A stretch of DNA of 38,726 bases from a virus. Taxonomy: Duplodnaviria > Caudoviricetes. The stretch lies in IMG/VR virus record IMGVR_UViG_3300032111_000006, positions 1 to 38,726 of that record. One strand, written 5' to 3'. This document shows, piece after piece, positions 8,741 through 38,726 of the stretch. The notes beneath the pieces were generated by a model. That model ran no database searches. It had not been told where the DNA came from and saw only the letters and a list, made by a program, of their open reading frames with translations. Within the stretch, counting starts at the first letter, position 1. Each line of letters starts with the position of its first letter. The position numbers and the translations under genes are program-made.

Positions 8741-9727
8741 GTGATCAATACGGAACGTTTGGTGAATGAACTGGTGGCAGCAGTGAAGTCACACTCTTCC
8801 GATGCTGACGAGCCGGCCATCATCAGAGCTATTCAAGGGATACTGGTGCGCTATGAGATAAGGCCGGTGGACGTGGACGTTAACCACCAGATTGCCGAGA
8901 AGGTCAGGCTTTTCCTGGCGGCCAAGAAGCTTGAAGGCGCCAGTATTTACACGCTGAAAGGCTATGGCCTTGAGCTTAAGATCTTCGGCCAGTATTTCAC
9001 CAAGGACGTCGATCAAATTTCGACCAGCGACATCCGGTGGTACTTAAGCCAGTTCCCGAACCATAAGGCCTCGACGATCGGCCGGAAGCTCGCGGTCCTG
9101 AAGTCGTTCTTTGCCTGGTTAACGGACGAGGAGATCGTCCCGCGGGACCCCGCCCGGAAGATCAAATACCCGAAGGGATCAAAGCGGCTTCCCAAAGCCC
9201 TCACCATCGAAGAGTTGGAGCTGTTGCGCGAAGGCTGCCAGACACTGCGGGACCGGGCGCTTGTCGAGTTCTTGTATCACACCGGTTGCCGCCTGTCGGA
9301 AGTCTACGGTTTGAACCGCTCGGACATCAACTGGCAGGAGCAGTCGGCCAGGGTGGTTGGCAAGGGAAACAAGGAGAGGGTGGTGTTCTTCGGCGCCAAG
9401 GCCGCGATTCACCTACGGCGGTATCTGGATTTGCGTAAAGATGCACACCCGGCGGTGTTTGTGACGGACGTCGGCCTTGTCCGTCGGCTGTCACGGCGGG
9501 CCATCCAGTACGCGGTGCAAAAGATCGCGGACAGGGCTCCGATAGATAAAGGCGTGCACCCGCACATTCTTCGGCACACACTCGCCACCCTGCTCCTGAA
9601 CTCGGGCGCGGATCTGGCGGCGGTACAGGATCAACTGGGGCATGCCAATCCGGCGACGACGCAGATCTACGCCGCTTTGACTCCGGAACGCCGACGGGAA
9701 CAGTATCGCAGGCATTTGGTGCAGTAA
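8741..9727 (+). CDS. XerC/D-like tyrosine recombinase
   Basis: SAM-like N-domain, TGCRLSE (R), GKGNKER (K), HPHILRH (HxxR), LGHANPATTQIY (H, Y). Confidence 0.92.
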   Translation: MINTERLVNELVAAVKSHSSDADEPAIIRAIQGILVRYEIRPVDVDVNHQIAEKVRLFLAAKKLEGASIYTLKGYGLELKIFGQYFTKDVDQISTSDIRWYLSQFPNHKASTIGRKLAVLKSFFAWLTDEEIVPRDPARKIKYPKGSKRLPKALTIEELELLREGCQTLRDRALVEFLYHTGCRLSEVYGLNRSDINWQEQSARVVGKGNKERVVFFGAKAAIHLRRYLDLRKDAHPAVFVTDVGLVRRLSRRAIQYAVQKIADRAPIDKGVHPHILRHTLATLLLNSGADLAAVQDQLGHANPATTQIYAALTPERRREQYRRHLVQ

Positions 9728-33737: not shown

Positions 33738-33946
33738 CATACGTTCTTACAGTGAATGGCGATGGCACTACGACCATCGAGATCAGTTTTATTGACGAGG
33801 GCGTCGACATCCAAGGGCGCACGAACGTCAAGGGTGGCGAGGCCGAGGCACTGAGTTATCTGCCAGTCTTTGAGGCGGACCTACGGCGCAATTACGCTGA
33901 TCTGTTTCCCCTGCCCCCGATGCCGGAAGGAGGTATGTTTGAGTGA
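33734..33946 (+). CDS. Hypothetical protein
   Basis: 70-aa ORF coupled to both neighbours. Confidence 0.6.
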   Translation: MTYVLTVNGDGTTTIEISFIDEGVDIQGRTNVKGGEAEALSYLPVFEADLRRNYADLFPLPPMPEGGMFE

Positions 33947-35172
33947 GGTATATTAGCGGCCCATATACGCAGGGGCAACTGCTGAAGGAAATCCACGAAA
34001 TCGAGATTGCGCTGGCCAACCGATTCTTGCGTAACGGTGTCATTACCGACGCTGCTGAGCAGCGTTCCTGGCGCGAGCGCGTTGAGGAGGCCAGCTTTGG
34101 TCGTAACACGGTGCTATACGACGACCAAGGCAACCCCTCGGTGATGGTGGCGGTGCCGCTTATGACTGAGGCCGATCTACTTACCGGCGGGCGGAATATG
34201 CCCCACCCGGCCTTTATCGTCAACGGCATTACAAAACCACTGATCTACGTCTCAAAGTACCAAAACATAACCACCGGCTCCGGGACGACATTACGAGCCC
34301 TGAGCCTCAAACATCAGGACCCGGCGAATTCTATAACCTTTGACAACGCCCTTTTGGCGTGCAAGCAAAAGGGCACCGGATGGCACCTTCTGACTAACGC
34401 CGAGTGGGCCGCCATTGCGCTTTGGTGCAAAAAACAGGGCTTCTGGCCGCGCGGCAACAATGGCTTCGGCAAAGATTATGCCGTCGCCAGTGAAGCCGGG
34501 GTCCCGAGTTATTATTACGATGACGCTGGCACTAAGCGAATTGGGCGAGTCTTAACTGGTTCCGGCCCGTTACCCTGGTCGCATGACGGAAGCCCGTTCG
34601 GTATCTTTGACCTGAACGGCAATGTCTGGGAGTGGGTCGGCGGGCTGCGGTTAAATGTAGGAGAAATCCAAGTGCTCGCCGACAATAACGCTGCCGACAA
34701 CACTAAAGACCAGAGCTCCGCAAGCGCGGAGTGGAAAGCAATTCTCCAGGATGGTAGTCTCGTTGCGCCGGGTACCGCCAATACGCTCAAGATTGATTCG
34801 CCAGTCGCTGGGGATGGCGTGGGTGCTAACGACCTGGGAGCGCCGTTCATCAACACAACTATTACCAACAGCATGAACCCCGGCAATACCGCTTCGAACG
34901 AATACCTGGATTACGGCAGTTGTCCACTTGAGACCTTGACAGCTGCTGGCGGAGTCACCGTTCCAAACATTCTCAAATTGCTCGGTGTTGCTCCTGTTGA
35001 CAGCAACCACGGCGGGGACCGCTTTTGGGCGCGCAATTACGGCGAGCGTCTCCCGCTCCGGGGTGGGTGCTGGCTCCGCGGCTCCGCTGCGGGCGTTTTC
35101 GCTCTGGACCTGATCGGCCCTCGTTCGTACGTGCTCAGCAACGTCGGCTTCCGCGCGGCTTTTATTCCGTAA
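33943..35172 (+). CDS. DGR target protein, C-type-lectin/FGE-fold (Mtd-like receptor-binding protein)
   Basis: WHLLTNAEWAAI, GIFDLNGNVWEW, C-terminal RGG.W...GVF...R...GFRAA encoded by the VR. Confidence 0.92.
   Translation: MRYISGPYTQGQLLKEIHEIEIALANRFLRNGVITDAAEQRSWRERVEEASFGRNTVLYDDQGNPSVMVAVPLMTEADLLTGGRNMPHPAFIVNGITKPLIYVSKYQNITTGSGTTLRALSLKHQDPANSITFDNALLACKQKGTGWHLLTNAEWAAIALWCKKQGFWPRGNNGFGKDYAVASEAGVPSYYYDDAGTKRIGRVLTGSGPLPWSHDGSPFGIFDLNGNVWEWVGGLRLNVGEIQVLADNNAADNTKDQSSASAEWKAILQDGSLVAPGTANTLKIDSPVAGDGVGANDLGAPFINTTITNSMNPGNTASNEYLDYGSCPLETLTAAGGVTVPNILKLLGVAPVDSNHGGDRFWARNYGERLPLRGGCWLRGSAAGVFALDLIGPRSYVLSNVGFRAAFIP
35044..35161 (+). repeat. DGR variable repeat (VR)
   Basis: 118-nt ungapped match to 35590-35707 with 12 mismatches. 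Confidence 0.95.
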
Positions 35173-35198
35173 TCTGGCACCTGTAGAACTGTAATCTG

Positions 35199-35224
35199 TT
35201 TTGGCGGGCGGTAGCCCGCCAAAA
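35199..35224 (+). promoter_or_regulatory. DGR target-recognition hairpin/cruciform
   Basis: TTTTGGCGGGC-GGTA-GCCCGCCAAAA: 11-bp stem with a GRNA-type loop just downstream of the VR/IMH. Confidence 0.85.
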
Positions 35225-35235
35225 GGAAGGCGTCG

Positions 35236-35571
35236 ATGGAAGAACTAAAAATACTGCAAAAGACCTATGACATGATGCAGTATGGCTACGTCTGCCTGCG
35301 CCAATTCCCAAAGTCTGAGAAGTTTGCTTTGGCGGGCGAGATAAAGTTGGCGATGGCCAGAATGTTGCGGCTGATCATTCAGGCCAATAAGCGGTACTTC
35401 AAAAAGAGCACGCTCCAGGACATCGATGTAGAGCTGGCAACGGTCAAGACTTATGTCCGATTGGCAAGGGATCTGGGCTTTCTGCCTTTTAACAAATACG
35501 AGCACTGGTCTAAGATGCTCGATGAAATCGGCAGGATGCTCGGAGGCTGGATAAAGAGCGTAAAGCAATGA
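35236..35571 (+). CDS. avd: DGR accessory variability determinant
   Basis: 111-aa four-helix-bundle pattern FPKSEKFALA...EIGRMLGGW between VR and TR. Confidence 0.92.
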   Translation: MEELKILQKTYDMMQYGYVCLRQFPKSEKFALAGEIKLAMARMLRLIIQANKRYFKKSTLQDIDVELATVKTYVRLARDLGFLPFNKYEHWSKMLDEIGRMLGGWIKSVKQ

Positions 35572-35589
35572 TTTACGGGGAGGAAGCCA

Positions 35590-35707
35590 GAGCGTCTCCC
35601 GCTCCGGGGTGGGGTCTGGAACAGCGGCTCCGCTGCGGGCGTTTTCGCTCTGAACCTGAACGGCCCTCGTTCGTACGTGCTCGGCGGCATCGGCGTCCGC
35701 GCGGCTT
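35590..35707 (+). repeat. DGR template repeat (TR)
   Basis: Copy of the VR between avd and RT; retains AAC codons at 3 positions. Confidence 0.93.
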
Positions 35708-35886
35708 CATCCTGCAGCCAGAAGTGGTTGGCTCACGGGCCAATCTCCAGCGCACAGGGATAAAGGGGCTTTCTTCCCTGCCGCGTTCCGCATTGGACCG
35801 GCAAAAAACTGAACTGCTGGGAAGGCAGTTAGTAGCCCGCAAGGGCGAAGGGTGCCACGCCCAGTCTAATTAAACGGAGGCAGCAC

Positions 35887-36966
35887 TTGAAGCGGCATAA
35901 GGGCTTATATCCAAAGATCTACGACTTCGAGAACCTATTCCTGGCCTATCTTGAGGCCAGGAAGTGCAAGCGTTACCGTTCTGAGGTTTTGAGCTTTACT
36001 GCTAATCTAGAAGAGAACCTGATCAACCTGCAAAATGAGCTGATTTGGCGCACATACCGGGTTGGGCGGTACCGGGAGTTTTTCGTGTACGAACCCAAAA
36101 AGCGGCTTATTATGGCCCTGCCGTTTCGGGACCGGGTGGTCCAGTGGGCCATTTATCGAGCGCTTAACCCGCTCCTTGACAGGCGCTATATCCAGGACTC
36201 CTACGCTTGCCGGGTAGGATACGGCACTCACCGGGCCGTGGACCGGCTGCAATATTGGCTCCGGGGTCTGGAGCGGAAGCATGCCAGGGTATACGTGCTG
36301 AAGCTCGACATATCCAAGTACTTCTACCGGGTGGATCATGATGTTCTGATGGCTATTCTGCGCCGGCTAATTGATGACCAGGATCTGCTGTGGCTCTTGG
36401 AGACTATTATCCGGTGCGAACATACCAAGTTCGGCTTGGCCCTGGGAGACCAGGGCTTCACCGGCGAGCGGGTGGACGGCGTGGGAATGCCCATCGGAAA
36501 CCTGACAAGCCAGATGTTTGCAAATTTGTACCTCAATGAACTGGACCAATTCGTAAAACACGAGCTGCGGGTCAGGCACTATATGCGGTATATGGATGAC
36601 GCCCTGGTGCTTCACTGGGAAAAACCCTACCTATGGTGGGTAAAGCAGGAAATCCAGCGGTTCCTCGACGAGCACCTGCGCTTAGTCCTGAATAGCAAAA
36701 CCACTATCAGGACCGTAGACCAGGGCATTGAGTGGGTTGGTTACTGGGTCTGGAGCACCCACAGGAAGTTACGAAAGTCCACGGTCAAGAAAATGAAGCG
36801 GCGCCTGAAATACCTCCAGAGGGCCTATGCCCGAGGCGAGGTTGATTGGGAGGAGGTAAACGCCAGCGTACAGAGTTACCTTGGCCTGTTGAAGCACTGC
36901 AACAGCTTTTGTTTGAGGGAAAAGTTCTTCGGTGATCTGGTGTTTTGCCGAAGGGTTACACAGTAG
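35887..36966 (+). CDS. DGR reverse transcriptase
   Basis: FRDRVVQ, LKLDISKYF, GMPIGNLTSQMFAN (DGR-type SQ), YMRYMDD; GGAGG SD with TTG start. Confidence 0.96.
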   Translation: MKRHKGLYPKIYDFENLFLAYLEARKCKRYRSEVLSFTANLEENLINLQNELIWRTYRVGRYREFFVYEPKKRLIMALPFRDRVVQWAIYRALNPLLDRRYIQDSYACRVGYGTHRAVDRLQYWLRGLERKHARVYVLKLDISKYFYRVDHDVLMAILRRLIDDQDLLWLLETIIRCEHTKFGLALGDQGFTGERVDGVGMPIGNLTSQMFANLYLNELDQFVKHELRVRHYMRYMDDALVLHWEKPYLWWVKQEIQRFLDEHLRLVLNSKTTIRTVDQGIEWVGYWVWSTHRKLRKSTVKKMKRRLKYLQRAYARGEVDWEEVNASVQSYLGLLKHCNSFCLREKFFGDLVFCRRVTQ

Positions 36967-37048
36967 GACGGTAGTGCGCAAGCTTTAGGGTGGGCCAGGA
37001 CGGCGACCGGCAGGAAATAGAAGCATCAATAACGGTAAGTTATGGAAT

Positions 37049-37111
37049 TCTCGCGTAAAATTACGCTGGCGCGGCCATTTTGCGTGAGACTTCCGGCCAT
37101 TTTGCGTGAGA
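37049..37111. repeat. Right-end transposase-binding sites R1-R3
   Basis: CGGCCATTTTGCGTGAGA at 37072-37089 and 37094-37111 (22-bp period) plus an inverted degenerate copy TCTCGCGTAAAATTACGC at 37049-37066, the same layout as Mu attR. Confidence 0.8.
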
Positions 37112-37118
37112 AGCTATA

Positions 37119-37123
37119 CCTAT
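37119..37123 (+). repeat. Right copy of target-site duplication CCTAT
   Basis: Matches 397-401. Confidence 0.85.
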
Positions 37124-38634
37124 CTAACAGACGAAATGAGGATGTGTGTTTTCAGCCTACCTACGAGGAATTGAAACACCGTTTTTGGCAGTGCATTCTA
37201 AAATGGAGGTGAAGGTTTTCAGCCTACCTACGAGGAATTGAAACTCTGCAACGGGATGCCAACCCTCATGATTGAGCTTCAACGTTTTCAGCCTACCTAC
37301 GAGGAATTGAAACGCGGGCAGCTGGCTGGCGTAGAACCGATGGTTCTTGGTTTTCAGCCTACCTACGAGGAATTGAAACCCGTCTGACCGTAGGGGTTGT
37401 CGCCGCTGTCGAGTTTTCAGCCTACGAGCCGTCGGGGTTTTTCTTCATCGGGCGGTCCACGTTGTCGCCGCTGTCGAGTTTTCAGCCTACCTACGAGGAA
37501 TTGAAACTTTTCTCAATGTCTTCTTTGGTTAGGCGGCCTTTTTGTTTTCAGCCTACCTACGAGGAATTGAAACCGCGGAAGCGGTAAAAATGTAATAAGT
37601 GGGGGGAAGTTTTCAGCCTACCTACGAGGAATTGAAACCCTTTGACGCCGACGCCTGCACGAACCCCAATGTCGGTTTTCAGCCTACCTACGAGGAATTG
37701 AAACGCTTCTTCCTCGACGACCTCGAAGGCCGGGTTCCTGTTTTCAGCCTACCTACGAGGAATTGAAACGCGGGCAGCTGGCTGGCGTAGAACCGATGGT
37801 TCTTGGTTTTCAGCCTACCTACGAGGAATTGAAACTGGGCTTGCGGAGTCGACCACATCCGCAAGACCCGGGTTTTCAGCCTACCTACGAGGAATTGAAA
37901 CGCAAACGCGAATTTTACAAGCTTGCCGATTTCATCAGGTTTTCAGCCTACCTACGAGGAATTGAAACAAATGTTGAAAGCCTGCAACATTAAAACCAGA
38001 ACCGGGTTTTCAGCCTACCTACGAGGAATTGAAACACCAAAGAAGAGATCGAACAAGTTCTGACCAACTTGTGTTTTCAGCCTACCTACGAGGAATTGAA
38101 ACGGGTCTGGCGGTATCCAACCCCAACCGTTCCACGCAAGTTTTCAGCCTACCTACGAGGAATTGAAACCCTTTCTGCCTGGCCTGCGGCACAACCCGAA
38201 CCTGGTTTTCAGCCTACCTACGAGGAATTGAAACTGCAGCCAACGATAAGGCCAAGCAGGAATACCACCATGTTTTCAGCCTACCTACGAGGAATTGAAA
38301 CCGGTGCAGGTTCGGGTTGTGCCGCAGGCCCGGAAGAAGTTTTCAGCCTACCTACGAGGAATTGAAACAAGGTTAGCATTGTTACCCTCTCCTTTGTATT
38401 CGGGTTTTCAGCCTACCTACGAGGAATTGAAACGTGATCGGATTGATAACGTGCGTCATACCTCGTCACAGTTTTCAGCCTACCTACGAGGAATTGAAAC
38501 AACCGAGGCATCCAGGCTACCCGAATGCCGTTCACCGGTTTTCAGCCTACCTACGAGGAATTGAAACCAGCCAAGCGTTCGCCAGCTAGCCAATATGCCG
38601 TCGGGTTTTCAGCCTACCTACGAGGAATTGAAAC
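37119..38634 (+). CRISPR. CRISPR array, right part (22 full repeats plus one irregular unit)
   Basis: Same 30-bp repeat from 37148 to 38634, spacers 33-39 nt, irregular unit at 37396-37490. Confidence 0.98.
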
Positions 38635-38649
38635 AGTAAGTCTACTTCT

Positions 38650-38679
38650 TTGACGGTAATGGCCTCGACGGGTTATAAT
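38650..38679 (+). promoter_or_regulatory. Possible sigma-A promoter after the last repeat
   Basis: TTGACG-N18-TATAAT pointing out of the array. Confidence 0.45.
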
Positions 38680-38726
38680 GGACCCAAGAATTTAGACACG
38701 AAAAAGACAACGTTTAAGGTGTATCA

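Follow-up and report, generated by a model that had tools for sequence, protein, structure and literature searches.

How did a CRISPR array come to hold two identical stretches, half spacer and half repeat, on either side of a spacer-sized segment? The question is raised by a viral record of 38,726 bases, which was analyzed whole and is called the window below. On its + strand, positions 37396 to 37425 and 37461 to 37490 are identical over all 30 nt, which is the length of the repeat, and the bases flanking the two copies mismatch on both sides (G/C on the left and G/C on the right). Each copy comprises the last 17 nt of a spacer, here called spacer A (37380 to 37412), followed by repeat positions 1 to 13. 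The duplication is not an in-register copy of a whole repeat, being shifted 17 nt into spacer A. Between the copies lies a 35-nt insert (37426 to 37460), whose longest word in common with the rest of the window is at most 10 nt. Sequence comparison thus upheld the preliminary description of this locus on two points, namely, an exact, mismatch-bounded duplication around a unique 35-mer and a 30-mer of repeat length made of 17 nt of spacer and 13 nt of repeat.

The repeat was found as 28 exact full copies, 6 in a leader-side part of the array (26 to 386, + strand) and 22 in a leader-distal part that holds the scar (37148 to 38634, + strand). Upon removal of positions 37426 to 37490 by script, the array became regular again, with an intact repeat (37350 to 37379), spacer A (33 nt), a second intact repeat (37478 to 37507, the first 13 nt of which form part of the second copy of the 30-mer), a 36-nt spacer (37508 to 37543), and a further repeat. 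The insert, at 35 nt, has a length within the 35 to 39 nt of the 24 distinct ordinary spacers of the array. Spacer A has only 33 nt, and a length of 33 nt or less was seen in just 2 of 1,922 related spacers. The hybrid 30-mer is present as two copies only and is identical to the repeat at 9 of 30 positions. Two oddities are unexplained: the first three bases of the insert (GAG) are also those that would come next in the repeat following a CTAC slip, and insert nucleotides 4 to 14 are identical at 10 of 11 positions to the sequence across the cut site, a likeness reached by 34 of 3,000 shuffles (approximately 1%) and by 1 of 276 spacer pairs. Two spacers are seen twice, one at 37314 to 37349 and 37770 to 37805 and the other on opposite sides of a prophage (1 to 25, matching 37584 to 37608), and these could be due to array recombination, reacquisition, or strain mixing in the assembly.

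No cas gene was recognized among the 44 open reading frames scanned in the window. Two GTDB genomes carry the identical repeat, namely, a Bacillota MAG (G001) and the chromosome of a Desulforudis sp. (G002); it was found in no metagenome stretch and no viral stretch. At locus L042 of the Bacillota MAG, the genes cas3, cas4, cas1, and cas2 are followed by a leader ending in GG and then by the identical repeat, and cas1 scored 448 bits on cas1_HMARI (cut-off, 304), identifying it as type I-B cas1. Because of this arrangement, the array in the window was taken to be a host type I-B array on the + strand, with its leader leftward outside the contig; the leader and the cas genes of the array would then lie beyond the contig. 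The host itself is probably Desulforudis-like, judging from these relatives. No spacer of the window had three or more 12-mers in common with any one of the 1,916 related spacers. In the Desulforudis chromosome (L043), one exact copy of the repeat is found beside a partial copy, outside any array. The last 53 bases of the window (38674 to 38726) are 100% identical to several places in both genomes and showed high depth and varied flanks in the sequencing runs; they are probably the end of a multicopy insertion sequence.

Related arrays were surveyed for exact duplications of at least 20 nt that were spaced 45 to 89 nt apart and lay at least 8 nt off the repeat. The survey drew on 28 genomes of the same order, in array stretches at loci L061 to L110 (parts of arrays only), with L001 to L041 and L047 to L060 excluded as non-array loci. 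It returned 22 rows. One is the present scar, and the rest are edges of loci, repeats that have degenerated, tandem copies of whole units, or spacers that start alike. A comparable scar, for which the preliminary description had proposed such a survey, was thus found in none of the 1,922 distinct spacer units of the related arrays, and since none of them shows such a duplication, chance does not account for the one in the window. Where these units were anomalous, bases had been deleted, a whole unit had been copied in tandem, or the repeat was degenerate, and none of the six odd-length spacers that were checked had the form of the scar.

The origin of the insert was examined in public sequencing runs, 10 of which were found and 4 of which were compared over positions 37000 to 38726, as contig sets and not as raw reads. 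In run X4, from a different sample and a different study, a joint connected position 37460 to position 37245 (side 35, both 0) at a depth of 290.6. This is the depth of a 767-nt X4 contig that matches the spacer at 37245 to 37283 (+ strand) without repeat letters. The depth of the bin, 198.6, equals (7 x 192.3 + 35 x 290.6)/58, indicating that cover extends over the 35 letters of the insert exactly and into neither flank. The match of the insert, as derived from the joint row and the depth arithmetic at a likeness threshold of 90%, and the match of spacer 37245 to 37283 lie on the same contig in the same orientation. Because the insert matches a non-array contig over exactly its length, it is most likely not slipped array sequence, the origin that the preliminary description had set against its own reading. 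Spacer A was matched whole in X2 and X4 (side 33) and over side 30 in X1, on the contig bearing the target of the spacer at 37314 to 37349 (joints from 37412 to 37314 or 37770 in X1, X2, and X4). As this is also a non-array contig, the 17 nt are native to spacer A in their first copy, the second being the duplicate.

At least six X4 contigs (243 to 4,692 nt; depth, 141 to 363) each match one spacer of the array, the match ending at the spacer border or one base past it. Among the matches listed, the 5' flanks of the protospacers for the spacers at 37639 and 37705 both end in TCG, and the flanks were not repeats. TCN is a type I-B PAM, and we read these contigs as putative protospacers with a PAM. 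As the shared contig suggests, the insert most likely originated as a genuine prespacer, taken from the element targeted by the neighboring spacers. Between 37178 and 37805, at least eight spacers, including the insert, match abundant non-array contigs in X4. Translated by eye on the minus strand, the spacer at 37705 to 37739 with its flanks presumably belongs to a large serine recombinase-like gene (PYGY-type motif), which suggests a temperate phage or an integrative element as the target.

Other sources of the insert were considered. The possibility that the 35-mer is an ordinary spacer of another array was set aside, given that the matching pieces stop at spacer borders, that the contigs span 243 to 4,692 nt, and that the listed flanks are non-repeat; an array with an unrelated repeat is an unlikely source of the X4 match. 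A single 52-nt protospacer made up of the insert and the next 17 nt, which form an open frame on the minus strand, was also rejected, as the X4 match ends at 37460 and spacer A lies whole on another contig. The BLAST search for a donor that the preliminary description had suggested gave none, the best E value for 37426 to 37477 against phages and plasmids by blastn being 1. Exact matches to the 35-mer numbered zero in metagenome and viral contigs, a donor search with the 17-mer in viral contigs gave 41 matches, none with matching upstream sequence, and no donor was present in the three genomes of the G002 family. Sister-array searches in metagenome, viral, and GTDB genomes likewise found no array in the preinsertion state, which the same description had hoped to see in other strains.

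The target site was compared with the array starts of relatives. Profiles were built from 28 such starts, unselected, and 2,899 off-register positions were scored on both strands. Within spacer A, positions 37392 to 37401 (+ strand) read AGGG/GTTGTC, where the slash marks the cut, resembling the family consensus of approximately AYGG/GTTTTC and containing the junction-type pattern GG/GTT.TC; 17 of the 28 array starts are preceded by GG. In a post hoc test of five windows, position 37396 ranked 6th (-4 to +6), 5th (-2 to +6), 31st (+1 to +6), 50th (-4 to +10), and 960th (-4 to +30) of the 2,899, while the position one base upstream, 37395, ranked first in the -4 to +10 window. The insertion site therefore appears, by these profiles, to mimic the leader-repeat junction and not the body of the repeat. 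At positions 11 to 15 and 18 to 22 of the duplicated stretch, where mid-repeat motifs would lie, 0 of 5 and 1 of 5 bases, respectively, match this repeat's own. The 30-mer has G as its first base and C as its last. The pattern GG/GTT.T was found in 11 of the 1,916 related spacers.

The preliminary description had attributed the structure to Cas1-Cas2 integration 17 bp out of register, and this is the reading that the evidence supports best. We consider it probable that the host type I-B integrase placed both cuts 17 bp too far upstream in a single full-site integration, a reading that we prefer because it explains every base in one step. A prespacer would have been cut from the mobile element targeted by the neighboring spacers, probably amid a run of acquisitions against that element. 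The integrase would then have mistaken GG/GTT.TC inside spacer A for the leader-repeat junction and attacked the top strand between 37395 and 37396. The second attack would have followed 30 bp away, on the bottom strand between repeat positions 13 and 14, and gap filling would have doubled the 30 bp, making 37396 to 37425 the original copy and 37461 to 37490 the putative target site duplication. Later acquisitions would have continued at the normal repeat. The junctions of the insert are blunt. The short length of spacer A is left unexplained by the integration reading.

A second route to the same sequence would be the normal acquisition of the 35-mer followed by slippage or recombination between microhomologies, namely GTT on one side and AC or CTAC/GAG on the other, by which repeat positions 14 to 30 were deleted and 17 nt of spacer A were copied behind the insert. 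The array has evidently been rearranged already, as two of its spacers occur twice, both junctions look like repeat ends, the repeat contains an internal CTAC tandem, and the insert opens with GAG and has 10 of 11 nt in common with spacer A; a foreign origin of the insert is equally compatible with this course. However, two events would be needed whose sizes cancel exactly, with 17 nt lost and 17 nt gained, to leave a duplication of exactly repeat length. Furthermore, the 10-of-11 similarity is located at neither junction, and the anomalies among the 1,922 related units never took this form. We therefore regard slippage as unlikely.

An assembly or amplification artefact was considered as well, be it a chimeric product or repeats wrongly traversed in the assembly graph. 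Arrays are hard to assemble from short reads, and duplicated spacers are present here. In run X1, however, a contig of depth 46.5 returns from 37460 to 37396 (side 36, both 30). For the bin at 37406 to 37463, the depth of 60.4 equals (7 x 135 + 55 x 46.5)/58, so that the depth-46.5 contig covers 37406 to 37460, and by the same arithmetic no other X1 contig covers the 35-mer. The other listed array pieces had depths of 48.9 to 216.9, to which the 46.5 at the junction is close. This pattern would fit a 65-word loop in the assembly graph that carries both new junctions; as the words have 31 letters and the duplication has 30 nt, the graph cannot separate alleles with the loop from those without it. 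A wrong graph path cannot make new junction 31-mers, which X1 has at a mean depth of 46.5, and with no other contig over the 35-mer, a second template for a library chimera was not seen in X1. The read support envisaged in the preliminary description was thus obtained in part: the junction is held by an X1 contig, in contig sets only, and X1 may be the window's own source sample and hence not independent support. X2, a second run of the same sample, had zero cover over the scar (6.17 = 7 x 51.1/58), a hole that proves nothing, as X2 holds only 0.14 of the array's words. An artefact is, in our judgment, very improbable.

Insertion without Cas proteins was also considered, in which a staggered break took up a piece of an invader (e.g., in self-repair) or the MuA/MuB, tyrosine integrase, or reverse transcriptase encoded in the window left a footprint. 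It has a partial precedent in an insertion sequence found twice in repeat centers of a relative's array (L091), near the same repeat position, but is highly unlikely given that known target duplications are 4 to 12 bp for transposases and retroviruses and 14 to 15 bp for casposase, versus 30 here (from the available part of PMC4872114), and that the insert is as long as the array's spacers and matches nothing in the prophage (12 mismatches of 35 at best).

The available portions of published reports describe several events with which the proposed integration can be compared. In vitro, Cas1-Cas2 of P. furiosus carried out full-site integration off target, in stretches outside CRISPRs whose G/C borders lay 30 bp apart (Grainy et al. 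2019, PMC6698737). The scar shares with that system the paired cuts 30 bp apart, the non-repeat stretch, the G and C borders, and the partial junction likeness, the identity of the target to the repeat being 43% in the P. furiosus example and 30% here; it differs in that the former concerned a plasmid and an archaeal enzyme in vitro, whereas here a fixed natural scar lies in an array, half in a spacer and half in a repeat, in a bacterial type I-B system. In E. coli type I-E, noncanonical spacer integration produced "neo-CRISPR" arrays (Nivala et al. 2018, as described in 10.1101/148544 and PMC6698737). As in that case, a spacer would have entered a nonrepeat site in vivo and could in principle have founded a new repeat; unlike the E. 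coli events, which occurred at chromosomal sites under overexpression, the present one is in the cognate array and its new repeat was not reused. Off-target integration with duplication of repeat length has already been described in vitro and in E. coli (PMC6698737; 10.1101/148544, as far as the available text goes).

In type II-A systems, spacer ends resembling the leader directed ectopic spacer acquisition (Achigar et al. 2021, PMC7999890; Garrett 2021, PMC8047081), repeat mutants of S. thermophilus showed misplaced second-site cuts and partial spacer duplication, and off-target sites in S. thermophilus look like a leader-repeat junction (Kim et al. 2019, PMC6895254), according to the parts of these papers at hand. 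The scar is similar to the type II-A ectopic events in that integration in mid-array would have been aided by a leader look-alike in a spacer, but those events were in register and duplicated a whole repeat, whereas here the look-alike covers the junction itself, inside the spacer.

A system of the same subtype, type I-B, is that of H. hispanica, where, in the accessible part of Wang et al. 2016 (PMC4872114), mid-repeat motifs were essential, duplication always began at the real leader junction, and aberrant duplications changed in size by 1 to 3 bp; a 2-nt shifted repeat in E. coli is cited there as well. The two cases agree in the type, in the 30-bp repeat, in a second cut that is not sequence specific, and in that non-repeat bases can be duplicated. 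They differ in that the first cut in H. hispanica was at the true leader junction, whereas here both cuts would be shifted 17 bp and there is no in-register mid-repeat motif. By our analysis, the target site thus appears to agree with the P. furiosus and S. thermophilus findings and to disagree with those in H. hispanica. Several findings count against the integration reading, namely, the low likeness to the full repeat (9 of 30; rank 960 of 2,899), the rank of 50 at the site's own register in the -4 to +10 window, the lack of a counterpart to the H. hispanica mid-repeat motifs, the failure of the searches to find a preinsertion array, the zero cover of the scar in X2, and the absence of a cas gene from the window.

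A more specific proposal, which we think less likely than not, is that a bacterial type I-B integrase, in a primed run against one mobile element, used a ten-base junction mimic in a spacer that had been acquired recently and, with no mid-repeat motif, measured 30 bp. If this is true, type I-B would need no more than junction mimicry and a pure length ruler, which conflicts with the two-motif model for H. hispanica, and every invader-derived fragment with GG/GTT.T would introduce a decoy site for integration into the array. The scar offers a ready substrate for deciding whether mid-repeat motifs are required by a type I-B integrase or whether a junction look-alike and a 30-bp ruler suffice. 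Errors by Cas1-Cas2 are seldom recorded in nature (0 in 1,922 related spacer units), and the anatomy of this one is unusually full, with an intact target spacer, an exact duplication, and a traceable donor. It is likely to be a clean natural example of an error type that is already known. A natural mid-array off-register scar in type I-B was not found in the literature searched (titles and abstract openings, largely outside subscription journals), which is not proof of absence.

The preliminary description had gone further in seeing the hybrid as a route by which new repeat sequences could arise, and here it was not supported: the hybrid was never reused, it lacks the 3' half of the repeat, and the error type had been described before. 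All 28 full repeats are canonical, and so no new repeat was founded at this site. A type I crRNA carries an 8-nt 5' handle that originates in the repeat's 3' end. Since the hybrid repeat lacks the ATTGAAAC 3' end, it is predicted not to be cut into a separate crRNA, and the insert is predicted to yield no guide of its own. Spacer A retains its own 5' handle and might still be functional. On these predictions, it is likely that the scar is a dead end and not the origin of a new repeat. When folded, the repeat (z, -0.74) and the hybrid 30-mer (z, -0.16) both did no better than shuffled sequences, which makes folding uninformative with respect to processing.

The two parts of the array are parted by a complete-looking Mu-like transposable prophage (387 to 37147), which separates the 22 repeats from the leader side and encodes a repressor, MuA, MuB, Gam, and head and contractile-tail proteins. 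Its MuA relatives in viral contigs were 24 to 36% identical (14 loci). The left end, TGTT at 387, directly abuts a repeat, and at the right end 18 nt separate a matching AACA near 37129 from the repeat that follows. No target duplication of 4 to 6 bp was found for any TG..CA pair near the prophage ends, so that there may have been an adjacent deletion, or a join made in assembly; contigs in both X1 and X2 run across the right junction. No array spacer matched the prophage body (best, 10 mismatches of 33), and no report of a transposable phage inside a CRISPR array was found in the literature searched. Near the right end, two 18-nt direct repeats 22 nt apart (37072 to 37111), with an inverted look-alike just upstream, are candidate transposase binding sites. 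Besides muA, the early phage genes include one for a tyrosine integrase/recombinase (8741 to 9727).

A diversity-generating retroelement (DGR) is located at the right end of the prophage (33943 to 36966). It comprises a target gene (33943 to 35172) with a variable repeat near 35044 to 35161, avd (35236 to 35571), a template repeat (35590 to 35707) that is 90% identical to the variable repeat, and a reverse transcriptase gene (35887 to 36966); the repeat pair is 118 nt long, starting at 35044 and 35590. In the related array at L091 (G026:C1, about 1,900,800 to 1,906,200), an element of approximately 1.7 kb with terminal inverted repeats is inserted twice in repeat centers, at approximately positions 12 to 15, near the repeat position of the scar's second cut.
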